IMG/VR virus record: IMGVR_UViG_3300046008_000242
Span: 185,363 to 249,362 of that record
DNA: 64,000 bases
Reading direction: 5' to 3' (one strand)
Source: a virus
Taxonomy: Duplodnaviria > Heunggongvirae > Uroviricota > Caudoviricetes
Below the pieces are notes generated by a model, which had not been told where the DNA came from, did no database searches, and saw only the letters and a program-made list of their open reading frames with translations. Below are positions 9,072 through 59,811 of this stretch, one piece after another. Within the stretch, counting starts at the first letter, position 1, and each line of letters begins with the position of its first letter. Made by a program: the position numbers and the translations under genes.

Positions 9072-9596
9072 TCAATCATACACATACTCTAATGTATCAG
9101 TCTTCAAACCGTTCTCGATAATATCACAAAGAACATCTCCAACATACATCTCAAACTCTTCATCGATTGTTCCTACTCCATCAGGAACATAATGTACATT
9201 ATACTTGAATCCCAACTCTCTATCGTCAGATTCAATAGGTGGTATATGTATATCCTCGTATGACACAATATATCCATTAAACTTACCCTTCAACTCAACT
9301 GCTGTAATCTTATCACCTAAGTCATTGATATAACTGATTACTTCATACTTGTTAGCCGTTGGCTGTAAATCTTTCATGATAATCGGAATTGCTGAGATTT
9401 CAATGGTGTTATCGTATTGGTCTTCGACGGTAATGTTATCGTATCCAATTTTGTTAAGATGATTGATTACTTGGTCGAATCGCTGGTCATCTGTTATATC
9501 GGGAAATGTTGACAACTCTCTGATATTTGACTCTTGGTCTTCGATTACAATTGAATCTTCTAAGTATCTTACAGTGAAATTAGTCATCCAAATCAT
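9072..9596 (-). CDS. hypothetical protein, 174 aa, directly downstream of uvsX (the gene 40 position in T4 order)
   Basis: ORF track; overlaps the uvsX stop. No recognisable motif. Confidence 0.5.
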   Translation of the reverse strand: MIWMTNFTVRYLEDSIVIEDQESNIRELSTFPDITDDQRFDQVINHLNKIGYDNITVEDQYDNTIEISAIPIIMKDLQPTANKYEVISYINDLGDKITAVELKGKFNGYIVSYEDIHIPPIESDDRELGFKYNVHYVPDGVGTIDEEFEMYVGDVLCDIIENGLKTDTLEYVYD

Positions 9597-11055
9597 CCAT
9601 GTCTAGGTTATCTAATTCGTCTGTAATTGAATCGTCCGTCAACATTGTTCCATTAGCAATTTTATATCTGTCTTCAACCCATTGTTTAAATTTGTCAGAT
9701 TGGAGAATAGGATTCCAAAATTCTTTTGTATTGGTTTCTTTCAAACGATAATTTTTATCTTCAATTTCTCCAGTTTTTGTGTCGATTCGTTGATACCAAC
9801 CATTTTTCGGTTTAATGCAAATTCCTGCTTCTAATGCCATATCCATCAAACCAGACCATTTGGAAATCCCATTATCATAATTTACACAAATTGGAATTTT
9901 AGATTTTTCTTTAACAAATCTTGATTTTTCGACATTGATGATGAAATTATATCCAATAACATCAGTTCCATCTTTTTCTTGTTGTCGACCAATAATAAAA
10001 ATTGTATTGGCAGAATAATAGATTCCAGTATTATGAGTAACTACCCCATTTTCTAAAATATAATGTTCAACATCTTTGACTGAAATGTCATACACTTTAC
10101 GAGTTCCAACAGAAATAATACTTTTAATTTTGGAATTGCGTTGATTGTCTATACAAACCAATGTTTTATCTGTCGATAAATTTGACGCTTCAACCCATCC
10201 AGAATCTGTCAAGAAAGGATGATTTTCTGAAACAACACATTTATATCCATCTTCAAATTCTATTTCAAAACATTCAGGTTCTCCAACTTCTAATGTATCT
10301 GGATTCCAAATATGAGTAACTGGTTTAGAACCATTTAATGTTTTAACTAATTCTCCAACTTCAATATCTTCAATTTTTTTAATTGAACCATCAAACATGA
10401 TAAGATTAGTCCCAGCTTCTAAACAACCTCCACTAACTACAGCTGAGGGGAACAGCGACATTGAATCGTAAGTGTGATTCACACAAATCATTGGAATATC
10501 ATATTTAGTTAGATATGGAGTAATCATACGGAAACATGATTTTAATTGTTTTGCTCTAGTTAGATCCGATACGGACTTCTCTGCCAGTGAATCTTCGCGC
10601 TCTTTCCGTGAAGACATGTTACCTATTGAATCTACAACGAAAATTACATTTGTCTTTCTATCTAATGCATTTAATTGAGCCATCACTTCAAATTTGAATT
10701 CTTCGATATCCATAATGGGTACATGTAATACTCTTTCAATATCTATTTCGAATGATTCGAAGTAGGACTTTGGTGATCCGTACTCCGTATCCATAAAAAT
10801 TAAAACAGCATCATCATGTTTATCTAAATATGCCTTTGCCATAACTAGACAAAGCGACGTTTTGAACGATTTCGATTTTCCGCAAGCTAAAATTAAACCG
10901 CTAGAAATACCACCATATAAAGAACCAGATAACGCAATGTTTAATGCAGGAACATCTGTAATACATACGTCGCCACCATTAACAATTTTAGATTCCGACA
11001 ACACCGCAGTTTCTTTAATTGTGCTTGTTTTTTTCAATCTTTCCATTAAACTCAT
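9580..11055 (-). CDS. uvsX: UvsX RecA-like recombinase interrupted in frame by a 132-aa mini-intein (extein about 359 aa)
   Basis: Extein is collinear with T4 UvsX (Walker A ACGKSKSF, VCVNHTYDS, SANTIFIIGRQQEKDG, NVEKSRFVKEKSK, KPKNGWY). The insertion CLEAGTNLIMFDG...GVVTHN sits between SGG and TGIYYS, exactly where T4 has GGG|TGPMYS. Confidence 0.9.
   Translation of the reverse strand: MSLMERLKKTSTIKETAVLSESKIVNGGDVCITDVPALNIALSGSLYGGISSGLILACGKSKSFKTSLCLVMAKAYLDKHDDAVLIFMDTEYGSPKSYFESFEIDIERVLHVPIMDIEEFKFEVMAQLNALDRKTNVIFVVDSIGNMSSRKEREDSLAEKSVSDLTRAKQLKSCFRMITPYLTKYDIPMICVNHTYDSMSLFPSAVVSGGCLEAGTNLIMFDGSIKKIEDIEVGELVKTLNGSKPVTHIWNPDTLEVGEPECFEIEFEDGYKCVVSENHPFLTDSGWVEASNLSTDKTLVCIDNQRNSKIKSIISVGTRKVYDISVKDVEHYILENGVVTHNTGIYYSANTIFIIGRQQEKDGTDVIGYNFIINVEKSRFVKEKSKIPICVNYDNGISKWSGLMDMALEAGICIKPKNGWYQRIDTKTGEIEDKNYRLKETNTKEFWNPILQSDKFKQWVEDRYKIANGTMLTDDSITDELDNLDMDDLDD
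10030..10425 (-). mobile_element. mini-intein (Hint domain only, no endonuclease domain) inside uvsX
   Basis: N-terminal Cys codon (TGT; plus strand aca at 10423-10425). C-terminal His-Asn (plus strand att/atg at 10030-10035) followed by a +1 Thr. 132 aa, too short for a LAGLIDADG or HNH insert. Confidence 0.8.
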
Positions 11056-25840: not shown

Positions 25841-28684
25841 ATGAAAACATTCTCTGAATTACGCAAACAAATAAACGAAAACAGTCTATATACATCTCAA
25901 CAGGAGAAAGATGACTTCCTGAAAGATAAGAAGAACATCGTCAATGCATTCCTTTATTCGTTTATCGGTAATCTATCATTATACAACAAAGACCCAGCAA
26001 AAGCTAAACATTATTTTGTTGGCGATAAGAAATTACAGATCCAAAACATCACTGATGATAACAATGATGCATCGTTAATCCTAAAGATTATGCATGATGA
26101 AGGTGGTTTCAAGAATTCAAACACAGCCAACAATCTAACCAAACTGTTGGCAAAATTGAAAGTTTCTGATGTAACATTAGATGATACTCTAATGAGAAGT
26201 TGGTTGGCAGATATCTCTCCTTCTTTCCATTCGGTTATTCCAACAGAATTGAAAAAGACTGTTGATGATTACACTCATGGTATCACCAGTTTCGATAGAT
26301 TAAGTTACAAATTGTACAAACATAAAACTGCGTATGGCGATGGAGAGTACCTAGCATTGGCTAAGAAGGTTGGTCGAATTGATAGACATACACATAAACC
26401 AAAAGTTGTTAGTCAAACTCAACCTGCTCCTACTGTAACTCCAGTTACACCAACAATCTCTAATCCTCAGATTGTGGTTCCGGTGGTTAATACAACAACT
26501 GTAACGTCTATTACTCCACCAGATGTTGTAGATGAACCTGTGGTGTTAGAACCACAACCAGAAGTTAAACAATTCAATCAAGAATTGTATGATAGAGTTT
26601 TAAAAAAAACCAAATATCTTTCGACATCTTATCTTGTTCAATTAGATGAATCTGATGTTAAAGAATTGGTGGAAGATTCTGAAGTGTTGATGAAATTAAT
26701 GGAAGATTATCCTAGATTCTTTGGCGATTCTTTAAATCCCTATCAATTTGAAATGGCTAGAGATTATATAATGAAAAATTATACAGAAGAATCAATTATT
26801 AAATTGGGTAAAAATAAAGAAAACTCAATTTGGATTAAATATGATATAAAACAATCTATCAAAATTCTGAATAAAAGAAACATAGACGCCACTAAAGTTT
26901 ATGATGCAATGATTATTGCTCCATATATTTGCGACAAAGATATTGGTATATCTGGGCAACAGATTCTTGATTTTTATGAAAAAAATAAAATTCTAATTTC
27001 ACCAGATAACGGTAATAAGATTGCGCGAGATTTCCCTGAGATATTAGTTGATGCTGTTAAGTTGACAATCAAGGACATGGGTGTCGGATATGTATCTACA
27101 ATGGCTGTTAAATTGAATGAACAACAGATTGATGATGCATTTCCTATTGATAACAAATTATTGGCTCCATTAAATGTTATCTTAACGGGTAGATTGTATA
27201 AAGATTCTTCTGAATTACTAAAGAAATACAATAACAATGAAGTATTGATTATTCAAGCATTAACGGACACTAGCACCCCACATTTTACACCTTACATAAA
27301 TTCATTGAATAAATTGTTCTTCGAGGATATGGATAAATGGTATCCATGGGAACGAAAATATAATTACATGAAACAATTATTAACTAAACCAAATGCCATT
27401 GATTATTTCAACGATAAATTCAAATATGCATTTACTGATGATGGAGTTTTTGATTATTTCTCAGATAAAGAAAGATTAGATGGTATCTCATCATCTTTAT
27501 TCGATTTAATGGTGACCAATTATAAAACAAAATCTGATATTGTTGATTCTTTATTCAATGACCTTGGCGACAAGATTAAATCTAAAGTGAAAAAGAACTT
27601 CGATTCAACATTTAAAGTTATGCACGATTTGAAAAATAGTGCGTTACCAATTAAAGAAGATCTAGACGCAAAGGGTATTAAGAAGATTTTAGAATTCAAC
27701 GGGATTGACCTTAGTGTTATTTCTGGTAATAAAATGAAATTCTCCAAGAATAAATCGTTGAGTCAATCTATTAATGAATATATGAAAGATGGCACCAACA
27801 TCATCGAACCATTAAAAATTGTTGAATTAAAAACAACAGAAGCAGAAAATAAGAAGGTGACTGAGAAGATTGTAAATGAAACTCATTCTGGTGGCAGACA
27901 CGGAGATATCTATCCGTTAATCTTACGTCAATTTGAAGTTCATCTACCTGACGTTCAATTCCAAGAGTTTAAAGAATTGATGATTAAGAATAACACACAT
28001 TCTGAAATTATACCCGCATTCCATGGAACTGGTTCTATAGCAGCCAATATGATTCTTAGATATGGATTTAAAGTTATTCCTGAAAATGATAATTCAGGAA
28101 TTGGTGTTGCTGGTAGAATGTTAGGTGATGGTATCTACTTTGGAACCAATATTGATAAAGTGTTACAATATGTAGGTAATGCTGGAATGACTAGACGATT
28201 GGGAACGACTGGATATGTATTTGAAATGGAAAATGAATTGGGTGTGCAGGGTGAAGATTACACTTCTGCTGGTTTAGGTGGAGATAGAATTGTTTCTCCT
28301 GAATGGTGCGTCTATAATGCCAATAAACAATTAAAAATTATTAAGGCTTACGAAGTGAAATTAGTTGATAGAGCAGAACTAGATAAGACGTTGAATGAAG
28401 CAACCAATAATAGAATGATGTCATTTAAAGAATTCAATAATGCCAAGAAGAACAATTATACATCATACAATTTCTATGACAGAAATGTTATAACACCAGA
28501 TGGTAAAATCATCAAATCATCAGATGTAAATGATAAGACGTTTAAGAAAGGAATTAGAGTTGAGATTCGCGGGAAGATTACATCGATTATCATACCAACT
28601 CGACAATTAGAATTCAATGATATATTATCTTGTTATGATTTACAAGATAATGCATTAAACAAGTATCTTAAATTGGTGAATTAA
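25841..28684 (+). CDS. 947-aa multidomain protein with a C-terminal PARP-like (H-Y-E) ADP-ribosyltransferase domain
   Basis: Plus-strand ORF with ATG at 25841 and an AAAGGAA Shine-Dalgarno. The C-terminus reads AFHGTGSIAANMILRYGF...GRMLGDGIYFGTNIDK...SPEWCVYNANKQLKIIKAYEVKL. This aligns with the PARP1 catalytic signature LWHGSR...GKGIYFAD...YNEYIVYD..LKYLLKL, with H, the Y of GIYF and E all conserved. A Pro/Thr-rich linker PAPTVTPVTPTISNPQIVVPVV sits near residue 200. Confidence 0.75.
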   Translation: MKTFSELRKQINENSLYTSQQEKDDFLKDKKNIVNAFLYSFIGNLSLYNKDPAKAKHYFVGDKKLQIQNITDDNNDASLILKIMHDEGGFKNSNTANNLTKLLAKLKVSDVTLDDTLMRSWLADISPSFHSVIPTELKKTVDDYTHGITSFDRLSYKLYKHKTAYGDGEYLALAKKVGRIDRHTHKPKVVSQTQPAPTVTPVTPTISNPQIVVPVVNTTTVTSITPPDVVDEPVVLEPQPEVKQFNQELYDRVLKKTKYLSTSYLVQLDESDVKELVEDSEVLMKLMEDYPRFFGDSLNPYQFEMARDYIMKNYTEESIIKLGKNKENSIWIKYDIKQSIKILNKRNIDATKVYDAMIIAPYICDKDIGISGQQILDFYEKNKILISPDNGNKIARDFPEILVDAVKLTIKDMGVGYVSTMAVKLNEQQIDDAFPIDNKLLAPLNVILTGRLYKDSSELLKKYNNNEVLIIQALTDTSTPHFTPYINSLNKLFFEDMDKWYPWERKYNYMKQLLTKPNAIDYFNDKFKYAFTDDGVFDYFSDKERLDGISSSLFDLMVTNYKTKSDIVDSLFNDLGDKIKSKVKKNFDSTFKVMHDLKNSALPIKEDLDAKGIKKILEFNGIDLSVISGNKMKFSKNKSLSQSINEYMKDGTNIIEPLKIVELKTTEAENKKVTEKIVNETHSGGRHGDIYPLILRQFEVHLPDVQFQEFKELMIKNNTHSEIIPAFHGTGSIAANMILRYGFKVIPENDNSGIGVAGRMLGDGIYFGTNIDKVLQYVGNAGMTRRLGTTGYVFEMENELGVQGEDYTSAGLGGDRIVSPEWCVYNANKQLKIIKAYEVKLVDRAELDKTLNEATNNRMMSFKEFNNAKKNNYTSYNFYDRNVITPDGKIIKSSDVNDKTFKKGIRVEIRGKITSIIIPTRQLEFNDILSCYDLQDNALNKYLKLVN

Positions 28685-28775
28685 GATAGAATGATCCCAG
28701 AATGTAATGTTCTGGGATTTTTATTGGATAAGAGTTACATTAAACCATCCATTATTTGTCTAATAATCAATCTTA

Positions 28776-28832
28776 ATGGAACGTTCTGATATTAACCCAA
28801 TCAACTCTATGTCATACAAAAGAACGTTCCAT
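28776..28832. repeat. inverted copy of the 45-bp GGAACGTTCC motif, with an extra GGAACGTTC half
   Basis: Its reverse complement tgtatgacatagagttgattgggttaatatcagaacgttccattaag matches the direct copies at 24283 and 13093. Confidence 0.7.
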
Positions 28833-28847
28833 ATAACCAAATCTTAT

Positions 28848-28886
28848 CCAATAAAAATCCCGAAGGAACTTTACGTTCTCAACGGG
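28848..28886 (-). terminator. intrinsic terminator
   Basis: Minus-strand hairpin AUCCCGUUGAGAACGUAAAGUUCCUUCGGGAU plus UUUUUAUUGG. It is a near-copy of the 24395 terminator. Confidence 0.6.
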
Positions 28887-28894
28887 ATCTTATT

Positions 28895-29362
28895 TCATTC
28901 TTTAATTGGTTCTACTTTAAAATTAACAAATGTCAATTTAGTGCCTTGTAATTTACAAGATAACTCTTCGATCTTCTGTATCTCATCATCACTTGGCGTA
29001 TACATAATTGATACATGTGGTATGTATTCGGAATACGAATGTTTATATCCGATATTGACCAATGCATTAAACTGGGATACTAGATCTGGTGATTCTAATG
29101 TCAACGCAACAGCACCCCATTTAGAACCTTTCTCTCCAAGTAATTTACAGCCAGATACAACTCCAACAAATTTATCATGTAATGGTTCCACTTTAAATGC
29201 TGGATTAGATACATCATACATTAACGTTACATGTAAATCATCGATGACGCTTATTCCACTTTCATGAAAAAACTCTTTCAATTGTTTTGAATCATCATCC
29301 GATAATCTAACAGCCACGTATCCACCTTTGTGTTGTTTCCATTCTTCAAATGTTAGCATCAT
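28895..29362 (-). CDS. 2H phosphoesterase, Acb1-like (candidate anti-CBASS/anti-Pycsar cyclic-nucleotide phosphodiesterase)
   Basis: 155 aa with two H-x-T/S-x motifs: DLHVTLMY (His at residue 44) and IPHVSIMY (His at residue 116). Size and spacing match the 2H fold of T4 Acb1 (gene 57B). Confidence 0.6.
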   Translation of the reverse strand: MMLTFEEWKQHKGGYVAVRLSDDDSKQLKEFFHESGISVIDDLHVTLMYDVSNPAFKVEPLHDKFVGVVSGCKLLGEKGSKWGAVALTLESPDLVSQFNALVNIGYKHSYSEYIPHVSIMYTPSDDEIQKIEELSCKLQGTKLTFVNFKVEPIKE

Positions 29363-29425
29363 TAGATGACCTCAGTTGAATTTGCAATGTCACCTCATCC
29401 TTCTCTATTCATGTATTTCCCCTCT

Positions 29426-30805: not shown

Positions 30806-31019
30806 TTGCACTTTGTTCTTTCCAATCAAGCCTTAAATCATTTTGTTTAAGATATCCCACTATAGAATCATGGATTACATTTCTGAAACATTGATGTAAT
30901 TTGAATCCAGGAATCTTAATTCCAATGTTCTTTGAGATCCATACAGAAACTTCTTTTTCTGTATAATTGACCAATTCGCGTATCTGGTGGTCTTTTAATC
31001 CATTCATATCAACCAACAC
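30798..31019 (-). CDS. hypothetical protein, 73 aa
   Basis: ORF track. Confidence 0.4.
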   Translation of the reverse strand: MLVDMNGLKDHQIRELVNYTEKEVSVWISKNIGIKIPGFKLHQCFRNVIHDSIVGYLKQNDLRLDWKEQSAND

Positions 31020-31398
31020 CTTTATGTTCTAACCATCTATTCCTAAATTCCCATAACACAGTAGCCTGACAATTATTCCCTTCTTTCCCGAATATATCAG
31101 ATAACCCAGAATACTTTGTCAATTCATCTAACAACAGAGGATTTTCCTGTAGATATTCCAACCATAACTGTTTATACAATGTTGTACATTCTTTCATGTT
31201 GATAATCGAATGGAGTTTCTGATATTGTTTACATGATTTGGGATCTAACCCAGTAACTCCATCATCAAACACTTTAGATGATTGATAGATGTTCTCAATA
31301 GTATCGTTCCTTCTTTTAATGTAAGCAAAGAAAGTCGAAAATCGTTTATCTCCTTTCGATGAACATTCAAGGAAAGGTTCTTCCCCGCGTCTAACCAT
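31009..31398 (-). CDS. hypothetical protein, 129 aa
   Basis: ORF track. Confidence 0.5.
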   Translation of the reverse strand: MVRRGEEPFLECSSKGDKRFSTFFAYIKRRNDTIENIYQSSKVFDDGVTGLDPKSCKQYQKLHSIINMKECTTLYKQLWLEYLQENPLLLDELTKYSGLSDIFGKEGNNCQATVLWEFRNRWLEHKGVG

Positions 31399-31880: not shown

Positions 31881-32453
31881 TTATACGTTGATACCAAATT
31901 GATTTGCCAATGTTTTTAATCCACCAGCATATCCTTGACCAACAGCTTTGAACTTCCATTCATTATTGTATCTATAAACCTCACCAAAAATCATTGCCGT
32001 CTCTGATGACATATCTTCAGTCAAATCAAATCGTAATACTTCAATTCCAGTGTCTTTATTGACTAATCGAATATACGCATTTTTAACTTGACCGAAATTC
32101 TGACGGCGTTGTTCCGCATCATGAATCGTCACAGTAATACTAATCTTATCGACAGACGAATCAACTAATGTTAATTTAATTGTAATCTGTTCATCATCAC
32201 CTTCACCAGACCCAGTCAAATTATCGCCAAGATGTTCAACCGAATTATCAACAGATTTCAATTGATTGTAGAAGATGAAATCAGAATCACTTCTAACTTT
32301 ATCATTTTTCAAAAGAAATGCCGAAGCATCTAAATCAAACGGACTACCATCAGTGGTTCTAGCATCCCAACCTAATCCAACAATAATGTTTGTTAAAGAT
32401 GGATCTGTTTTAGTTAATGAAAGATTGTTGCCTTTTTGTAATGTTAATGCCAT
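31881..32453 (-). CDS. TerD-domain stress-response protein
   Basis: [27 protein letters not shown] ... [15 protein letters not shown] ... [14 protein letters not shown] matches the TerD/TerE/TerZ pattern. Confidence 0.8.
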
Positions 32454-32464
32454 GATATGAATTC

Positions 32465-33148
32465 CTATAGATAAGTTTTTTGAATTGTTGAAATGATTCC
32501 GTCTAATGTTCTATCGTTAGTGGGTTCTCCGATGGCATTAAACTTCCATGAATCTTTGTGTCTATACAATTTACCAAGAACCATAGACACTTTATTGTTG
32601 AACGTTGAATCTTTTGCGATATTGTATCCAGCTAATACATCATCCACTCTAGTTGGAGTTCCTTCATAAATTCTAATTGAAGCAAATGGAATACTATCAA
32701 ATTGTTGACCTCTATATGAATTCAAAACAATAAAGATTTGGTCAACAGATGATTTCACTCTGGTTAGATCTAATGTGATGATTTCATTATCTAAACCATC
32801 ATCTCCGTTTGAATCTCCAACTAGGTCGTCGCCAGAATGTTTAATTCCAGTTCCATTTAATTTACCATAATAGATTGTCTCATCTTTAGAATTACCTTGG
32901 AATGTAATACAACTAACATCCAAATCAACAGCTGTTCTTCCAATCATACCCCAATTGACACCAACGCAGACGTTTGTTAATGATTTCCCATTCTTTTCTA
33001 ATGAAATACGTTGACCTTTAACCAGAGTGAGTTTAGGTTGTTTCTGTTGTTGAACTTGTTCGATTGAATTCTGTACAATTTGTCTAGTTGTATTAACAGA
33101 CCCTTCGATGTTATCGACCACTGTTCTGATTGCGTCAAAAATGCTCAT
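32465..33148 (-). CDS. TerD-domain protein (second, divergent paralogue)
   Basis: [24 protein letters not shown] ... [19 protein letters not shown] ... WKFNAIGE. Confidence 0.7.
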
Positions 33149-33223: not shown

Positions 33224-34693
33224 TTAAAGATTATCTGATACAATCTTACGAATTTCAGCTAATGATGTTTCCTTAACCAACTTGCCGTCTTTGAATACAA
33301 CTTCTAAACATCCATGTTTTTCATGCTTTGGTTCAACATTATCATTCAATGTATATTGACCATTTTCATGAGATACCATCAATAGACCTTTAGCTGATTT
33401 CTTAGTCCCATCATCCGTTTTTGGATCTTTGAAGATAACTCTTGATTTACCGTTAATTATTGCATAAGTGGATTTAAGTGCAAAACCATGAGTATCTCTT
33501 GTCACATATCCCAACGAATACGAACCAATTCCAAATACTATATTATTAGAAGCAAATCCTTTTTGTTCTAATCTGACGAAAATAGATTGTTGTCGATCTA
33601 ATGTGATAGAATCGCCATAGATAGTGCCAATTTTTGGATTTAATACTTTATAACCTTTAGAGTTAATTGTTCCACCAAAAGTATCCCATAAACATTCAAT
33701 TAAACCTTTGTCTTCTGGCAAACATCCACCTATGATAGGATATATTCCACAAATAATATCAACTGGGTCGCCTGAATCAGGTCTTATAACCAATTTACCT
33801 TCTCGGGATTCAATTCTATCCTTTAATGTAGGAAGATATTCAGTAACAACTTTCCAAAAATCATAACTATCCGCCACATATGAAACGATACCAGTTGGAT
33901 AAACTTCTGTTATAATTCGGGTCAACGTTTCTAATTCATCTTCGTGTCCTCCTGAACAAACTACACTATGTTCGCTTGCTGGTACAGAATATGCTATGTC
34001 CGTTGTTGCTCCATAATATTCTTTAGCAAGTAAGATAGCTGGTATCGTATCTGTTCCTTTTGAACCAGTTGCAATAAAAGCAAACCCAGAAATTGCAGCA
34101 GCTTCTTTACATTGCATACCTCTCATACTAAAATCATGTTGTTGGAAAGGAACAAATGAATTATCATCACATGTCTTTTCTGAAAACTCTAAACTTTTAT
34201 TATAAAATGCTCGTGATGTGGTTGCGGTTGAACAAGGTAACCAAAGTTCTGCGGATAATACAGTTTCAATCATATTAGTCACCCAGAAGAATTCAGGTAA
34301 CGTATTTTTAATTGTTAAAACAGGTACACCATATGGAACAAACGAACCTTCTGGTAACGCTTTAATTTCAATTGGAAGATACCCTAAGTCATATAACGAT
34401 TCAATATGACTGACATTAGTTTCTCCTAATGAATCATCAACAATTTCTTTATATGACTGGATAACGAAATCTTTGGGTTGTTTAAAGAATGTTTCGCCCC
34501 ATTCGCGGATTAAATGTTTAATAATAAAGTATTGTAATCCAATAAAGTAAATACCTTTAGATCCAGGAATGTTTGATAATCTACCCGAACGAGGTGTAAA
34601 GTTAGAATAAATTAATTCCGTCCCTTTTGGATATTGATTAACATGTGACACTTTATAAAAATCTTTTTGTAATGGTGCAAAATTTGTAGACAT
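33224..34693 (-). CDS. nicotinamide phosphoribosyltransferase family protein (NAMPT/NadV-like; alternatively a Namat-type NAD-reconstitution enzyme)
   Basis: 489 aa. N-terminal DFYKVSHVNQYPKGT (the NAMPT DSYK.THY.QYP motif), GTDTIPA, SVPASEHS, and the overall NAMPT length. The track start at 34705 is a TTG; the first ATG is at 34693. Confidence 0.8.
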   Translation of the reverse strand: MSTNFAPLQKDFYKVSHVNQYPKGTELIYSNFTPRSGRLSNIPGSKGIYFIGLQYFIIKHLIREWGETFFKQPKDFVIQSYKEIVDDSLGETNVSHIESLYDLGYLPIEIKALPEGSFVPYGVPVLTIKNTLPEFFWVTNMIETVLSAELWLPCSTATTSRAFYNKSLEFSEKTCDDNSFVPFQQHDFSMRGMQCKEAAAISGFAFIATGSKGTDTIPAILLAKEYYGATTDIAYSVPASEHSVVCSGGHEDELETLTRIITEVYPTGIVSYVADSYDFWKVVTEYLPTLKDRIESREGKLVIRPDSGDPVDIICGIYPIIGGCLPEDKGLIECLWDTFGGTINSKGYKVLNPKIGTIYGDSITLDRQQSIFVRLEQKGFASNNIVFGIGSYSLGYVTRDTHGFALKSTYAIINGKSRVIFKDPKTDDGTKKSAKGLLMVSHENGQYTLNDNVEPKHEKHGCLEVVFKDGKLVKETSLAEIRKIVSDNL

Positions 34694-34714
34694 AATATCT
34701 CTCAATAATTTATT

Positions 34715-35980
34715 TTAAAAATCATATAGTGGAAGTTTACCAACTAACCAATTAGTATCAACTGTTTCATTTTTGTTTAAAATTTTTTCTTCTTTTGTTG
34801 TTGGATTATACACCCAATGCTCTTTTCTTGTAATTACTATTTCATGAGGTTTGATTTCCGCAAAAATAATGTTATACACCCCAATCTCATGAATTGATCT
34901 TACTGTAGTTTTACCTTTATATTTTTTTGAATATAAACCAGTTTTAAATTCTTCAATTGTTATATAAACACGGTTTCCGTTCATATCAATTGCGGAAACC
35001 ATACCAATTGATGTTCCATTATAATTTCCAGAATCGAATTCTTCTTTAGAAATTTGTCTAGTTGTTCCATTTTCATCTTTTATTATAACTTTACCTTTAT
35101 TTACATGTTCATACTCATGTATATTTTCTTTATTTATTCGTAAATTATTTCCATTTTCGTCTTTTACAATTACAAAGCCTTTATTTACTCCATCATAGTT
35201 GCCAGAATCGAATTCTTCTTTAGAAATTTGTCTAGTTGTTCCATTTTCATCTTTTATTACAACTTTACCTTTACTAATACCAACAAAAATATTACTATAA
35301 AATTCGTCAGATTTGATCCTAATAATTTTACCATTTTCATCTAATGCTACGACAAATCCAGAACTAGGAGTAATATAATTTCCAGAATCGAATTCTTCTT
35401 TAGAAATTCTTTTTGTACATTCGGTATCATTTAAAATAACTACAAAGCCTTTATTTACTCCATCATAGTTGCCAGAATCGAATTCTTCTTTAGAAATTTG
35501 TCTAGTTGTTCCATTTTCATCTTTTATTACAACTTTACCTTTATTATTACCAACATAATTTCCAGAATAAAATTCTTTAGTTGTGATCCTAATAATTTTA
35601 CCATTTTCATCTAATGCAGAAACAAATCCTCTATTATAATAAAAATTTTCATATTTAGTTTTATATTTTTTATTATCGTCGCCGACCATCATTGTTAATG
35701 AAAATGACATCGAAAAATTTTTAGGGTATATTTTAGTTAATAAAATATGGGCAATAATATGTTGTTCGAATGTTAAAACAACGCCATTCCAAGGAAACTC
35801 TTTTATATTTTTATATTCTGGAAATAAATCTTTTGCTTTTGGACAAATATGATGAACTTCACAATAAATACTCTTTCCTATAAATTTATTTTTTATCCTA
35901 CATTTTTCTATGAAATTTTTATAATGATTGATATAAAATTCATTGCATGGTTTTGTTTTTAAAATTTCTAAATAATCCAT
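34715..35980 (-). CDS. Mob-like HNH homing endonuclease inserted between the NAMPT fragment and the full NAMPT gene
   Basis: EVHHICPKAKDLFPEY plus repeated GNY...KGxVVI modules. It is a paralogue of the HNH at 57006..58253. Confidence 0.75.
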   Translation of the reverse strand: MDYLEILKTKPCNEFYINHYKNFIEKCRIKNKFIGKSIYCEVHHICPKAKDLFPEYKNIKEFPWNGVVLTFEQHIIAHILLTKIYPKNFSMSFSLTMMVGDDNKKYKTKYENFYYNRGFVSALDENGKIIRITTKEFYSGNYVGNNKGKVVIKDENGTTRQISKEEFDSGNYDGVNKGFVVILNDTECTKRISKEEFDSGNYITPSSGFVVALDENGKIIRIKSDEFYSNIFVGISKGKVVIKDENGTTRQISKEEFDSGNYDGVNKGFVIVKDENGNNLRINKENIHEYEHVNKGKVIIKDENGTTRQISKEEFDSGNYNGTSIGMVSAIDMNGNRVYITIEEFKTGLYSKKYKGKTTVRSIHEIGVYNIIFAEIKPHEIVITRKEHWVYNPTTKEEKILNKNETVDTNWLVGKLPLYDF

Positions 35981-36500
35981 AACATAATAACCTTTTTAAA
36001 TTTAAGTTATAATTATTTATAAATTTTCTTGTCGCCGATGTGATAGGCAACCACATTTCACAACTCAATACAGTTTCAATGTAATTAGTCAACCAGAAGA
36101 ACTCTGGTTTGTTATTGATAACAGTTAATAATGACACTTTAAATGGAACAAATGAACCTTCTGGTAATGCTTTGATTGTGATAGGAAGATATCCCAAATC
36201 ATGTAATGCTTCGATATGAGATACATCCATATCTGTATTCAACATTTTATCCACAAATCGTTTGTATTTTTTAACGACTTGTTCTTTTGGTTTATTGAAG
36301 AAGGTTCTATTCCATTCATCGATAAGATATTCTTTGATGAAATATTGTAATCCTACAAAATAAACACCTTTACAATCTTTGATTCCAGAATGTTTACCAG
36401 AACGAGCAGTGAAGTTTGAATACACCACTTCCGTTCCTGTAGGATATTGAAAAATGTGTCCCAATTTATATGCGTCTGTTGATAATAATGCGTCGCTCAT
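35940..36500 (-). pseudogene. truncated NAMPT paralogue, N-terminal about 165 aa only
   Basis: MSDALLSTDAYKLGHIFQYPTGT...PEFFWLTNYIETVLSCEMWLPITSATRKF is collinear with residues 8-175 of the full NAMPT, at an estimated 60% identity. Reading then continues into unrelated sequence until a stop. Confidence 0.6.
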
Positions 36501-49986: not shown

Positions 49987-51279
49987 TTATTGTTCAGATT
50001 CAATATCGGAAGTCCCTGCATCCAACAATTTGGTTTCATATTCCATGAACGCAAATGATTTCAATTTGAGTGGAATACAATCATATAGTTTCTCCTGACG
50101 AATAACAACACCTTCAGCAGGTTTGCCTTTATTGTATTGACATTTTTTCTCTAAATTGTAATCAGTCATCAATCGTTTCAATACAGATTCATTCCAATCT
50201 CTGTCAACAGGAATGTCCGGATACAAATCTTTGGCGAATCCGTAATAGAATTCTTTAACATGGTTCAATCCAAATTTTGTACAGAAATCTTTAATCTGAC
50301 TCCATGTATATTCTGTGACCAAACCATCGACATTAGTATTGGTAATTCGATACACAACAAATTCGCATGTATTATTCTGACATCCATAGGTGTATCCAGG
50401 TTGAATTTCTTTACCAGATCCTGGAATGTATCCGACAATCTCACCATACAATGAAACACCTTTAGGAATCAAATCTTTAATTTCATTGTTTACATGACCC
50501 CATACATCAGTTCCATAGAATCCGCCATTCACTTGTACGTTAATGTATTGGTTCTTAACAACCTTGCGCGAACTATATACATTACCATATTCTGCCGATT
50601 CAACAGGGACTCCAAGTTTCAATAATAATTTTTCATACCATTTCAACACTTTGTTTGTAACAACATTAGAGAATACAGCAGAAGTTCCGTGCCATTTATC
50701 TGTAATGTAAATTAAATCGTTTGGTTTGATGTAATCGAAATACTTCTTGGCTTGGATAGAATCAACATGTAGATGGAATTGGTTCTCAATCAATCTAGTG
50801 AATTTTGGAGTTGAACCTTGACGACCTTGTTTGTTTGATTTGGATTCAACTTCTCTTACAATGTATTTACGACAGATACGTTCATTACCCATGTAATCAA
50901 ATTCTGTTCCAATATCAAGAGTTTTCAATTCGGAGTAATCAGAATGTAATTCTTCAAGTTGGATAAAGAATCCTTCCGATTTATTACCTCTTAATTTAAC
51001 AGCACGGATACGTCCATTTTGTTCAAAGAACCCAGCTTTGTCCTGATTCAAGTTCTTTGTCTTATCTCTATACAAACTATGTTTATGTAAGAATTGGTCA
51101 CCTAATTGACATTCTAATGGAAAGAATAATCCTTTGGTTCCAACCGTTAAATTCTTACCAACAATAACAGAGTTACCATAGATAATAGCTGCTTGGAGAT
51201 TATCCGCGTTTTCAATCGGAACCAATTTGTTAATTTCAACGATAGACGCACAATAGTTAGGATTCACTGGAGCTTTCAT
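49987..51279 (-). CDS. ATP-dependent RNA ligase (Rnl2/Rnl5-like nucleotidyltransferase) with an N-terminal extension of about 190 aa
   Basis: ITDKWHGTSAVFS corresponds to T4 Rnl2 motif I EKIHGTNFS (KxHGT). Later blocks YGEIVGYIPGSGKEIQPG, EGVVIRQEK and KLKSF match motifs III-V. The N-terminal region resembles no ligase C-domain. Confidence 0.55.
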   Translation of the reverse strand: MKAPVNPNYCASIVEINKLVPIENADNLQAAIIYGNSVIVGKNLTVGTKGLFFPLECQLGDQFLHKHSLYRDKTKNLNQDKAGFFEQNGRIRAVKLRGNKSEGFFIQLEELHSDYSELKTLDIGTEFDYMGNERICRKYIVREVESKSNKQGRQGSTPKFTRLIENQFHLHVDSIQAKKYFDYIKPNDLIYITDKWHGTSAVFSNVVTNKVLKWYEKLLLKLGVPVESAEYGNVYSSRKVVKNQYINVQVNGGFYGTDVWGHVNNEIKDLIPKGVSLYGEIVGYIPGSGKEIQPGYTYGCQNNTCEFVVYRITNTNVDGLVTEYTWSQIKDFCTKFGLNHVKEFYYGFAKDLYPDIPVDRDWNESVLKRLMTDYNLEKKCQYNKGKPAEGVVIRQEKLYDCIPLKLKSFAFMEYETKLLDAGTSDIESEQ

Positions 51280-55888: not shown

Positions 55889-56989
55889 TTATCCGAAGAA
55901 CTCATCCAAATTTGATTTTGCTTCAGTGTTCCATCCCAAAGGTTCAACCATATTTTTCATCTTAGATAAGAACGCCTTCTCAAACTGTAATTCATAATCA
56001 ACATATTTGTCAAGCTCAAATTCTTTTGGTATCGTATCAACAAACGCGATTACATTTTCTTTCAACGGATTTGGTGTCTTAAGATATGTGAATTTAATCT
56101 TATCGCCATTCTTAATCAATTGATGCGTTTTTTCCAATCCATGTTTTTTAATCATCTGATTGTACATAATTGAACCTCTAACATGGATAGGGGTTCCTGA
56201 TGCGTATCCAGATGTGGTCACAAATTTATCGATATCGGATACGCCAGATGGATTAGCAATTTCTGATATAGTCATATTCATGAATTGTTTTTTAATTCCT
56301 TCGACATACGTATGAATATCTGATTCTTCCTTGTAGAACAATATAGGTAATGAATCCTTTAGTAATGTTCTAATCAATTTTGGAGTAGATGATTTAACAA
56401 GATCTAATCCCATGACCTTTAATTTCGGTTTCTCGTATCTAACACCTTCTGAATCCCATACGTCCATGGCATAACGTTTCTTCTGTACGACAATAGAAGC
56501 AGCCGCAATGTTTTCGCGATCCATGACCATACGATTTTCATAAGCATGCATATATTCGGTCAAATTCTCAAACGATTTTTTAATAACAGGACTGATTATC
56601 TTTTCAGAAAAATTATCTAAAAAATCAACAATTTCCAATTCAGTCTTATCGGCGTAACCAGATATTTCAACAATTCTGTTTAAATTCAAGTAGTTAGAGT
56701 CAGTATCTACCATTATTACAAAGTCTATATTTTCAGTTTTACAACATTTGTTCAAAAATGCATTTAAATCTCTAGCAACCCATTGGATAGCAAGCCTTCC
56801 ACCTGTTGTAATACTTTCGGCTAATCTAACATCGAAGTATCTAAAGTATGGAGCCCCAGCTGCTCCAAATAAACTATTACTAGCTATTTTTAGAGCCATT
56901 TGAGCAACATGTAACATAGAAATCTCTTTTTCTAATGTTTTTTTGTATACCAATAACTCAGAATCACTCATTTGTTTAAATTCGTTCAT
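55889..56989 (-). CDS. 43: DNA polymerase gp43, C-terminal segment (43B): motifs B and C plus the thumb
   Basis: KIASNSLFGAAG is motif B K...NS.YG. IMVDTDSNYL is motif C DTDS. It has its own ATG and, together with 43A, gives 883 aa, compared with about 898 aa for T4 gp43. Confidence 0.85.
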   Translation of the reverse strand: MNEFKQMSDSELLVYKKTLEKEISMLHVAQMALKIASNSLFGAAGAPYFRYFDVRLAESITTGGRLAIQWVARDLNAFLNKCCKTENIDFVIMVDTDSNYLNLNRIVEISGYADKTELEIVDFLDNFSEKIISPVIKKSFENLTEYMHAYENRMVMDRENIAAASIVVQKKRYAMDVWDSEGVRYEKPKLKVMGLDLVKSSTPKLIRTLLKDSLPILFYKEESDIHTYVEGIKKQFMNMTISEIANPSGVSDIDKFVTTSGYASGTPIHVRGSIMYNQMIKKHGLEKTHQLIKNGDKIKFTYLKTPNPLKENVIAFVDTIPKEFELDKYVDYELQFEKAFLSKMKNMVEPLGWNTEAKSNLDEFFG

Positions 56990-57005
56990 ATATTTTCCTA
57001 TTAAG

Positions 57006-58253
57006 TTATGATAACCAAACGTCTGATTCTGGATTGATTGTTAAAGATCCTTTTGTATAATCTTTACTACTATGAAATTTGAACGGAAATATAGAAATAC
57101 AAACATTTTCCCATTCTGCGCCAACATTATGTTTTTTTCTAGAAACCTTTGTAAAAATTCTATTACCATTCTTATATAGTTTCTTCAAATTTATTGCAGC
57201 TAGAATAACATTTTCTTCCACTTGTAACATATTACAAATATGTATATGATTCTGAGTGAAGTATTTGATTCCATTATATAAAATTTCATACACTGGAGTT
57301 GGAAATAATGCTTCCCAAGATGAACTAGGATATTGTTGAATATCCTTCATGTATTTCAATTTGGTAATTAAATTATAATGATGTTTGATAAATGTAAAAG
57401 GATTACCTCGTTGTCCGAAGTCTGCTCGTTTACATATCCACCCTTCACCATCTGGTTTAATTTTATGCTTAGTTGATTCTTTTGTTATTTCATTATACCA
57501 AAATCTAGCTTCTGTTTGAAATTCAGACATTTGATGTCGCAAATATTCAGGATAATCATTAGTGTATCCTTCTGGCGGTATTTCATCTGATTTTAGAAAT
57601 AACGGTTTCAGAGTTGGATGATACCAATGAACTCTATCCGATAATGCGACTGACGTCTTATTTCTAGATTCTTCATCTCGCAAAATTCCAAGAGGAATAT
57701 ATCTATCATAATCAACATCATCTGTTGACACTCTTACATTTATTTGATTTACTGTATCATAAACACCACATTTCCCAGAATGCATTTTAGAAGAACGATC
57801 TGACAATTTTTGCTTCACATCCGGAGTATATCTAGTTGGATCGTCAAAATATGCTCGTAATTTTACACTATTATTTTTAGAAGTTTGTTCAGAAAAATCA
57901 TTAGATAAATTTTCATACAATTTTGTTGATATTTTTCTTCCAGTTTGTTTATTGTGGAAATTTGTTAACATATTTGCCGAGTATATTACAGAAACTGACT
58001 GTCTAAACATTTTCCATATCATTAAATGAGCAATTTTATGTTCTTTTAATGTCAATACCGATTTATTCCAAGGATTCATTTTGAAATCAATATATTCAGG
58101 AAACAAATCCTCTGCTCTTGGGCATATATGATGTTCAGTTAGTTTTTCTCCTGGGGTTCTAATTATAGATTTTCTTGATTCTATAAATTTAACATATCGT
58201 TTTACAAAATGTAAATTGTGGGGTTTGGTTATTAAAATTTGATAAATGTCCAT
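57006..58253 (-). CDS. Mob-like HNH homing endonuclease inserted between 43A and 43B
   Basis: TEHHICPRAEDLFPEY is shared with the HNH genes at 34715 and 1786. Only 4 nt separate it from the 43A stop and 16 nt from the 43B start. Confidence 0.75.
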   Translation of the reverse strand: MDIYQILITKPHNLHFVKRYVKFIESRKSIIRTPGEKLTEHHICPRAEDLFPEYIDFKMNPWNKSVLTLKEHKIAHLMIWKMFRQSVSVIYSANMLTNFHNKQTGRKISTKLYENLSNDFSEQTSKNNSVKLRAYFDDPTRYTPDVKQKLSDRSSKMHSGKCGVYDTVNQINVRVSTDDVDYDRYIPLGILRDEESRNKTSVALSDRVHWYHPTLKPLFLKSDEIPPEGYTNDYPEYLRHQMSEFQTEARFWYNEITKESTKHKIKPDGEGWICKRADFGQRGNPFTFIKHHYNLITKLKYMKDIQQYPSSSWEALFPTPVYEILYNGIKYFTQNHIHICNMLQVEENVILAAINLKKLYKNGNRIFTKVSRKKHNVGAEWENVCISIFPFKFHSSKDYTKGSLTINPESDVWLS

Positions 58254-58257
58254 TTTA

Positions 58258-59811
58258 TTACAATAATCCGCGCATTTCTAATTCCTTTTTGACTAATTCG
58301 AGTTCTTGTTGTTTAGATAACATTTGTTTCTTCTTAGATGAACGTTCAGAATACATGTTCCGCATTAATGTTGAGAAGAAACAAACAATATCTTTACGAT
58401 AACACCAACCATTAGGAGTAATTGATAATCCATTATCGGGTAATGGTTTTTTATCTAAGCAGTATTCAACATCAATATCAAGATGAGTGGATGTTAATGT
58501 TTCTGGACCAATGTTATAATGTTGAATTAAATGCGGATACAATGAATTTAAATCGAACGATACAACCCATTTATGTTTGCCAATCTGCGGCGATTTAACA
58601 AATGCTCCATCAAACTGTTCGGATTTTGCTGTATATGTTTGAAACGGAGTAACCGTATTTAATTCTTCTTTCAAGTAATTATGAATGATTGCATCCCATA
58701 AATGAATAGGAGAAAACACATCTTCATAATTGATTCTGGCATAGTAAGCAAGCGACACTTGTAAAGAAATCATATTGAGTTTCTCTTCAAGTTGGATAAT
58801 CAGTTCCGCGTCGATGATGTTATAATCTGTAAATTTGTTCCAACATTTTTGTTTCAGTTCCGCATTTAGATCTATCCATTCTTGAGAGATATCTGGATGG
58901 AGATTACGTTCATAAGCAAGTTGTTGTAATTCATTACCATCCTTATCTGGTTTGGGTTCACCGTGTACAAAATTATAGAATGTTGTAAATTCATCATGAT
59001 TTAATTTGGCATGACCAAGAACCTTCTCTGCTATGGCATCAAGTTTATATGATTCTTCAGAACCATATGAATACTTCTTGTATAATGCTAGATAATCTAA
59101 TTGGGATACACCAAAGATATTGACAGTGCATCTATCGGGTTGTTTGTTATCGACTTTAACTTTTACAACATTCCAAGGGGATAATTGATTGGCTGTCTTC
59201 TCACCTAGGACAGCAACCATTCTATGATAGAGGTATGGAATATCGAAGAAGTCTGTGTTCCAACCCGTAATAATGTCAGGAATGGATTCTTTCCAGAAGT
59301 TAAGGAATTCCTTGAATAGATGTTCTTCATTATCGCATTGATGATAGATGACATCTTGGTCTGATGTATATGTTTTACAACCCCAAGTATGTTTCTGTTT
59401 GGATTGCATATCAACAATTGTAATCAGTACAATTTCCTCTACAGGATTGAACCAGTTGGGAAATCCCGCAGATACATCTGTTTCTATGTCAATCGCATAG
59501 ATTTTAACTTTTTCAAAATCATAATCCGTTACAATAGATTGAGGATACTTCTCAGAAAGGAATTGGTCACACCATGATGTATATCCATATAATTTTACAC
59601 CAGATATTCCTTTATATTGTTCAATAAAGTCTTTACAATCTTTGATTGTTCCAGGATTGATTTCATGCACTGGAACATCATCTAATGTCTTCCACTTGGT
59701 CGGTTGATTTTTACCAGTCATGAATAATGTTGGTTGAAATTCAATGATTTCTTTACCTTCCGGTGTTCTTAAATAGATATTATTGCCGTACGCATAAGCA
59801 TTTGTGTACAT
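58258..59811 (-). CDS. 43: DNA polymerase gp43, N-terminal segment (43A): 3'-5' exonuclease domain plus motif A
   Basis: YAIDIETD is Exo I. VVSFDLNSLYPHLIQ is motif A D..SLYPS. It ends before motif B. Confidence 0.85.
   Translation of the reverse strand: MYTNAYAYGNNIYLRTPEGKEIIEFQPTLFMTGKNQPTKWKTLDDVPVHEINPGTIKDCKDFIEQYKGISGVKLYGYTSWCDQFLSEKYPQSIVTDYDFEKVKIYAIDIETDVSAGFPNWFNPVEEIVLITIVDMQSKQKHTWGCKTYTSDQDVIYHQCDNEEHLFKEFLNFWKESIPDIITGWNTDFFDIPYLYHRMVAVLGEKTANQLSPWNVVKVKVDNKQPDRCTVNIFGVSQLDYLALYKKYSYGSEESYKLDAIAEKVLGHAKLNHDEFTTFYNFVHGEPKPDKDGNELQQLAYERNLHPDISQEWIDLNAELKQKCWNKFTDYNIIDAELIIQLEEKLNMISLQVSLAYYARINYEDVFSPIHLWDAIIHNYLKEELNTVTPFQTYTAKSEQFDGAFVKSPQIGKHKWVVSFDLNSLYPHLIQHYNIGPETLTSTHLDIDVEYCLDKKPLPDNGLSITPNGWCYRKDIVCFFSTLMRNMYSERSSKKKQMLSKQQELELVKKELEMRGLL

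Follow-up and report, generated by a model that had tools for sequence, protein, structure and literature searches.

Does the short open reading frame (ORF) at 28895..29362 (minus strand, stop codon included) of a 64,000-nucleotide stretch of viral DNA, positions 185,363 to 249,362 of IMG/VR record IMGVR_UViG_3300046008_000242 (hereafter the window), encode an enzyme that destroys cyclic nucleotide signals of bacterial immunity? A preliminary description, made from the letters of the window, had noted a 155-amino-acid (aa) product with catalytic histidines at positions 44 and 116, and had proposed an Acb1-like 2H phosphoesterase that might counter both the cyclic oligonucleotide-based antiphage signaling system (CBASS) and Pycsar. 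The ORF listing and direct reading of the DNA bear out the length and both histidine motifs, and the product belongs to the published Acb1 family as a genuine, though divergent, member, in structural group 3 of the viral 2H phosphodiesterases (PDEs). We consider it likely that the protein is an anti-CBASS cyclic-oligonucleotide PDE. This gives a confident functional annotation to a "hypothetical protein" of an uncultured T4-like jumbo phage; it leaves current understanding unchanged, as the Acb1 family, its fold, and the N-terminal-lid variant have already been published.

Family membership and predicted fold

The protein matches the Pfam Acb1 model (PF23474) with 55.2 bits (gathering score 27, E = 8.6e-15, residues 13-139 covered), practically equal to the 56.4 bits obtained in calibration for PDE-9 of Burkholderia phage BCSR5. 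It also matches PHROG 755 (E = 5.5e-28), a family labelled "RNA ligase" that contains T4 Acb1, the product of gene 57B (228 bits), as well as the validated enzyme PDE-9 (73.8 bits); both of these enzymes match the same two models as our protein. Compared directly with T4 57B by BLASTP, the protein is 23% identical (E = 4e-5), with H44 paired with H44 and H116 with H113. NCBIfam holds no model that matches either the protein or T4 Acb1. A word-indexed protein search gave four matches, and an exhaustive HMMER search was needed to reveal the family, which comprises 1,890 representatives at E <= 1e-3. An alignment of 76 sequences, all 76 of which match Pfam Acb1, was used for the profile search of the PDB and for the structural model, and 114 aligned family members were used for the counts of residues and end positions given below. 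The 76-sequence profile matched FBB1 Acb1 (7t26, E = 2e-17) and PDE-9 (9q2g, E = 1e-13) in the PDB and no chain of LigT, cyclic phosphodiesterase (CPDase), Usb1, or CNPase. Identity to the tested group 3 enzymes is 23% for T4 Acb1, 25% for PDE-9, and 23% for PDE-8, which are 26-29% identical to one another; judged by sequence identity, the protein appears to lie about as far from the assayed enzymes as those do from each other.

The AlphaFold2 model has a predicted local distance difference test score (pLDDT) of 96 and a predicted template modelling score (pTM) of 0.87. It shows a 2H phosphoesterase fold of compact form, with an extra helix of approximately 14 residues at positions 125-138, and its nearest solved structures are those of the phage Acb1 group: first PDE-9 (9q2y/9q2g; 16.0 and 0.79 on the two similarity scores) and then FBB1 Acb1 (7t27/7t26; 14.5 and 0.68/0.76). 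The third neighbor is the Penguinpox cGAMP PDE (11.1), and all of the top three are viral enzymes that destroy cyclic-dinucleotide immune signals. They are followed by the plant Appr>p CPDase (10.1), Usb1 (9.9), bacterial CPDase (9.8), and LigT (9.7), each with a second score of <= 0.6. Family models, the PDB profile, and structural neighbors thus agree on the Acb1-like 2H phosphoesterase that had been proposed.

LigT, 2'-5' RNA ligases, and 2',3'-cyclic nucleotide phosphodiesterases (PF13563, PF02834) have the 2H superfamily fold and two HxT/S motifs in common with the protein. Three comparisons asked whether LigT or CPDase fits the protein better, and none showed that it does: the score on Pfam 2_5_RNA_ligase2 is 17.7 bits, under the cut-off of 27, and the PDB profile search and the structural ranking likewise led to rejection of that identity. 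The anti-Pycsar role found no support. The Pycsar messengers cCMP and cUMP are degraded by Apyc1, an unrelated enzyme of the metallo-beta-lactamase fold, Acb1 being specific to CBASS signals (Hobbs et al. 2022, PMC9117128). An Apyc1 identity is rejected for our protein, which has a 2H fold, no Pfam match to metallo-beta-lactamases, and no Zn-binding HxHxDH motif.

Multi-domain profile matches (P0056, P0130, P0063, P0059, P0094, P0119, and P0068) include fusions of the Acb1 domain to DarA_N/DarA_C (anti-restriction), Tad5 (a Thoeris inhibitor), Phage_portal_3, and a Mu-F-like head protein; none of them is joined to Pnk or RNA ligase. The family profile also matches the C-terminus (residues 482-599) of the solved portal of cyanophage Pam3 (PDB 8hds). 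These fusions are independent support for a counter-defence role, and they suggest that multi-functional anti-defence proteins occur among them and that some phages deliver an Acb1 enzyme inside the virion. A literature search turned up nothing specific on Acb1 joined to portal or Tad5.

In public records the label "RNA ligase" is still common on Acb1-family genes, that of T4 57B itself among them (RefSeq NC_000866); "prohead protease" or "putative structural protein" is used at times. Such systematic mis-annotation hides the family.

Active site, ligand contacts, and lids

The catalytic tetrad HxT/HxT of Acb1 is formed by H44, T46, H113, and T115 (Hobbs et al. 2022). Read from the DNA (both on the minus strand), the equivalent motifs are H44-V-T46-L (residues 44-47, 29222..29233), which pairs with H44/T46 of T4, and H116-V-S118-I (residues 116-119, 29006..29017), which pairs with H113/T115. 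H44, T46, and H116 are each kept in 113 of the 114 relatives and Ser or Thr at position 118 in every one, Ser being the family majority at this fourth tetrad position (90/114). The two motifs are far beyond chance, because conservation in at least 113 of 114 relatives stands together with the E values of 8.6e-15 and 5.5e-28 on the Pfam and PHROG models.

Ligand binding in Acb1 involves the stacking aromatics Y12, W74, F107, and W147, with E141 touching the adenine N6 and residues 145-152 forming a C-terminal lid (Hobbs et al. 2022). Three of the five ligand contacts have counterparts in our protein: Y15 is equivalent to Y12 (Tyr in 101/114 relatives), Y110 to F107 (Tyr or Phe in 107/114), and E151-P152 pairs, by alignment only, with E141-P142. 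The C-terminal sequence E151-P-I-K-E (28898..28912, minus strand) ends four residues past E151, and alignments place the end of the protein zero to four residues past the EP motif in 102 of 114 relatives. The T4 tail (KLDWADDLK) is rare among the aligned relatives, and PDE-9 is active yet also without a C-terminal lid; this lid is therefore a mark of the T4/FBB1 branch and not of the whole family.

At the other end of the protein, residues 1-12 (MMLTFEEWKQHK, starting MMLTFEEW; 29327..29362, minus strand) include a predicted short helix at residues 5-10 (pLDDT approximately 80) and are a candidate N-terminal lid. They pair with residues 6-16 of PDE-9, part of its N-terminal lid (residues 1-15), which was defined by crystallography (Doherty et al. 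2025, bioRxiv 10.1101/2025.08.21.671373). The segment may play the same role here. A start of the form M-x-x-F/Y-x-x-F/Y/W is found in approximately 20 of the 54 relatives bearing an N-terminal extension, and also in T4 (MMEFKDF); 60 of the 114 have no such extension. The T4-type C-terminal lid, often treated as an Acb1 hallmark, is thus the exception among the relatives of this protein, about half of which are without a lid at either end while others carry an N-terminal aromatic segment. Lids are modular, and PDE-9 deprived of its lid still degrades 3'3'-cGAMP (Doherty et al. 2025). The distribution of lids bears on the question of lid versus core control of substrate choice, and on the possible evasion by phages of decoy sensors such as Panoptes.

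The gene and its neighborhood

The acb1-like ORF starts with ATG and is preceded at a distance of 6 nt by a Shine-Dalgarno sequence, GAGGT (29369-29373, minus strand). A second in-frame ATG follows directly, and because the closest orthologue begins there, the true protein may be 154 aa long. Directly 3' of the stop codon, RNA folding places an intrinsic-terminator-like hairpin followed by UUUUUAUU (28850..28894, minus strand), at a free energy of -17.6 kcal/mol (z = -3.3 relative to 200 shuffles); a simple terminator pattern scan missed this hairpin, the stem of which is interrupted. Comparison with a 71%-identical orthologue from another metagenome gave a ratio of nonsynonymous to synonymous substitution (dN/dS) of 0.27. 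An overlapping antisense ORF on the plus strand (28776..29267, 163 aa) is spurious, its reading frame not being kept in the orthologous locus. From the ORF features, the hairpin, the dN/dS value, and the loss of the antisense ORF, it follows that the acb1-like gene is real and under purifying selection; the same signals indicate that it is probably an expression unit with a terminator of its own. Just past the 947-aa gene that faces it lies another hairpin of 12 bp, GC-containing and followed by TTTTATTGG (28693-28719), and matched by a weaker one on the other strand. The two hairpins make up a convergent-terminator zone between the genes.

The source is an uncultured T4-like jumbo phage of 249 kb. 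GC content is approximately 32%, the DNA polymerase shares at most approximately 42% identity with its counterparts in marine T4-like myoviruses, and a nucleotide search with 3 kb around the acb1-like gene found no match among 50,697 phage records. UvsX, Dda, a split gp43-type polymerase, and an Rnl1-like ligase are all encoded in the window. The T4-type gp43-like polymerase is split into ORFs of 517 and 366 aa (region 55889-59811, minus strand) by an HNH homing endonuclease gene (57006-58253). The UvsX-like recombinase (9580-11055, minus strand, 491 aa) matches its PHROG at residues 1-211 and 309-484, with an unmatched insertion of approximately 100 residues between them.

The setting is unlike that of T4 57B, as the preliminary description had pointed out: the acb1-like gene has, 63 nt upstream and on its own strand, a gene for a Dda-like helicase (PHROG 325, E = 6e-96), and it converges on a plus-strand gene for the 947-aa protein (25841-28684). 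The product of this large neighbor matches PHROG 18612, of unknown function (E = 3e-121). The label "PARP-like" that had been attached to it has weak support, the C-terminal part of the protein resembling PARP weakly (22.2 bits on Pfam PARP against a cut-off of 26.7; tankyrase, E approximately 0.04). Its motifs FHGTG and GIYFG recall H-Y-E ADP-ribosyltransferases, and the 71%-identical relative has a 933-aa counterpart.

Upstream, on the strand of the acb1-like gene, lie a NADAR-family gene, two TerD genes, and the genes for NAMPT and phosphoribosyl pyrophosphate synthetase (Prs). The order NAMPT, NADAR, dda, acb1-like, and convergent gene of approximately 940 aa is kept in the 71%-identical relative. 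The NADAR protein (31009-31398, minus strand, 129 aa) matches the family of DarT1-associated NADAR antitoxins (PF22397, 39.8 bits, cut-off 27; PHROG 9995, of unknown function); it may serve the phage by erasing ADP-ribosylation from DNA, and is hence an anti-DarTG candidate. The tandem TerD-domain genes (31881-33148, minus strand; 190 and 227 aa; Pfam TerD, E = 1e-83 and 8e-34), between NAMPT and NADAR, are missing from the locus of the 71%-identical relative and are thus a variable insert. Ahead of the full-length NAMPT (493 aa) come an HNH homing endonuclease (34715-35980) and an N-terminal NAMPT fragment of 186 aa (35940-36500) that is 60% identical to the intact copy. This NAMPT region (33224-36500, minus strand) resembles a scar left by a replacement that a homing endonuclease drove, or by a partial duplication. 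In another sample, the locus of an identical Acb1-like protein has a NAMPT of 489 aa with a different short gene ahead of it.

Elsewhere, the homologue in Escherichia jumbo phage EJP2 adjoins a SIR2-family gene and itself lies approximately 2 kb from NAMPT/NMNAT, and T4 acb1 adjoins ipI (Hobbs et al. 2022). No conserved operon partner was found across six other phage contexts, and in other lineages the acb1-like gene occurs in unrelated neighborhoods with no RNA-repair partner. This pattern is in keeping with an accessory enzyme that works by itself and is prone to settle in counter-defence islands, as T4 acb1 does beside ipI. In the window, the gene points to a group of nearby genes with a probable counter-defence function (NADAR, TerD, NAMPT/Prs, and the large, weakly PARP-like protein) that is worth mining.

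Proposed role and comparison with known enzymes

The candidacy of the protein as an anti-CBASS enzyme is upheld by the family, profile, and structural tests, and the course of events that is most likely can be drawn by homology with T4 and FBB1 Acb1. As a small, stand-alone, metal-independent 2H PDE acting after infection, it would bind A-containing, 3'-5'-linked cyclic di- and trinucleotides made by host CD-NTases (such as 3'3'-cGAMP, cUA, cAAA, and cAAG), with Y15 and Y110 stacking on the bases and E151 reading the adenine N6. H44-x-T46 and H116-x-S118 would carry out metal-independent acid-base catalysis, in which the ribose 2'-OH attacks the adjacent phosphodiester 3' of adenosine and the ring is opened through a 2',3'-cyclic phosphate intermediate. 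Any lid function would come, as in PDE-9, from the amphipathic N-terminal segment (F5, W8), given that the protein stops right after the last beta-strand. CBASS effectors would then never be activated, and abortive infection would be avoided. All nine of the further T4 Acb1 homologues assayed were active (Hobbs et al. 2022), as were three of three tested group 3 enzymes (Doherty et al. 2025).

Several observations weigh against an anti-CBASS role. The T4-type C-terminal lid (LDWADDLK, with W147) is absent; the position of W74 in T4 and FBB1 is occupied by G76, as it is by Gly in 109 of 114 relatives (W82, six residues further on, is Trp in 58/114); and F148 stands where T4 has E138 and 93 of 114 relatives have Glu. 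All assayed enzymes of the Acb1 group fall outside the clade of our protein, EJP2 gp129 being among those not purified. Some structural groups of viral 2H PDEs were inactive on a panel of 18 messengers (Doherty et al. 2025), and the fold alone is therefore no guarantee of cyclic-messenger cleavage.

Some of these departures from T4 (at W74, the lid, and E138) also speak for an alternative in which fold and chemistry are the same and the main target is another messenger, such as the type III CRISPR messengers cA3, cA4, and cA6 or 2'-5'-linked oligoadenylates, or in which the range is narrowed to spare 2'3'-c-di-AMP and so not trip Panoptes. Substrate range varies both among structural groups and inside them, type III CRISPR messengers are also cleaved by group 3, and PDE-9, the closest solved structure to our model, largely spares 2'3'-c-di-AMP (Doherty et al. 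2025). Specificity, however, is not readable from sequence; the preprint assigns it to the enzyme core, and the protein is 25% identical to PDE-9 and has the E141-equivalent Glu that PDE-9 lacks. Every tested group 3 enzyme, moreover, still cleaves 3'3'-cGAMP, and we regard a different main target or a narrowed range as unlikely.

Healing of RNA ends is what the common database label, "RNA ligase," borne by many homologues, implies: an enzyme of the LigT/2',3'-cyclic phosphodiesterase type, or a 2'-5' RNA ligase, would join the RNA ligase of the phage in mending tRNAs that host anticodon nucleases have cut. This reading draws on membership of the 2H superfamily, on the weak 2_5_RNA_ligase2 match (a model matched by 21 of the 76 relatives at E <= 1e-3), and on the Rnl1-like RNA ligase in the window (49987-51279). 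Set beside the profile and structural results on which a LigT/CPDase identity is rejected, it is decidedly improbable. A PDE that would act on a cyclic phosphate derived from ADP-ribose (Appr>p, for example) in concert with the neighboring NAD+/ADP-ribose genes (947-aa protein, NADAR, NAMPT, and Prs) is very improbable indeed. Acb1-group enzymes are clearly the stronger match by both structure and profile, NAD genes are missing from the contexts of other homologues, and anti-defence islands explain the clustering equally well, as for T4 acb1 beside ipI.

The protein differs in several respects from T4 Acb1 (gene 57B, NP_049750) and Erwinia phage FBB1 Acb1 (PDB 7T26/7T27). The close mirroring of T4 Acb1 put forward in the preliminary description holds for size and histidine spacing; it does not extend to the remainder of the protein, which has the low identity noted above, no lid with W147 at residues 145-152, Gly for W74, Phe for E138, and the helix at 125-138, which T4 lacks. 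The contexts differ also, being 57A/ipI for T4 acb1 and dda/NADAR/NAMPT here.

The closest cultured relative is EJP2 gp129 (WEM33190; 37% identity, E = 7.5e-25), which is listed among the curated 2H PDEs (Supplementary Table 1) and lies outside the purified set (Doherty et al. 2025). It shares with our protein the motifs TLMYD-SNP and GYKHS(Y/F)PE, the absence of a C-terminal lid, and a nearby NAMPT, and it is without the N-terminal extension and the EKGSKW hairpin insertion. Further homologues of this kind are found in Rak2-like, Erwinia, Vibrio, and Aeromonas jumbo phages. We tentatively raise the possibility, on balance doubtful, that our protein, EJP2 gp129, and many jumbo-phage and metagenomic proteins make up a fourth branch of the Acb1 group, marked by TLMYD-SNP, GYKHSY, Gly in place of W74, and the lack of a C-terminal lid. 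In our protein the F5/W8 helix would serve as the lid, and the enzyme would sit inside a counter-defence island centered on NAD+/ADP-ribose, with a substrate range possibly tuned unlike that of T4 Acb1 (sparing the Panoptes decoy 2'3'-c-di-AMP or favoring other cyclic oligoadenylates). There is modest room for a distinct substrate range on this branch, because the assayed enzymes lie outside it.

Among enzymes of solved structure, the protein is architecturally nearer to PDE-9 (QRE00328; PDB 9Q2G/9Q2Y) than to T4 Acb1. Both lack the C-terminal lid and have the same extra helix and an N-terminal extension, that of our protein being approximately five residues shorter. Where our protein has G76, PDE-9 has Trp; our protein has the Glu-Pro equivalent to E141-P142 of T4, and PDE-9 does not; and the genomic contexts of the two differ. 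In its putative lid arrangement, the protein resembles the variant already described for PDE-9.
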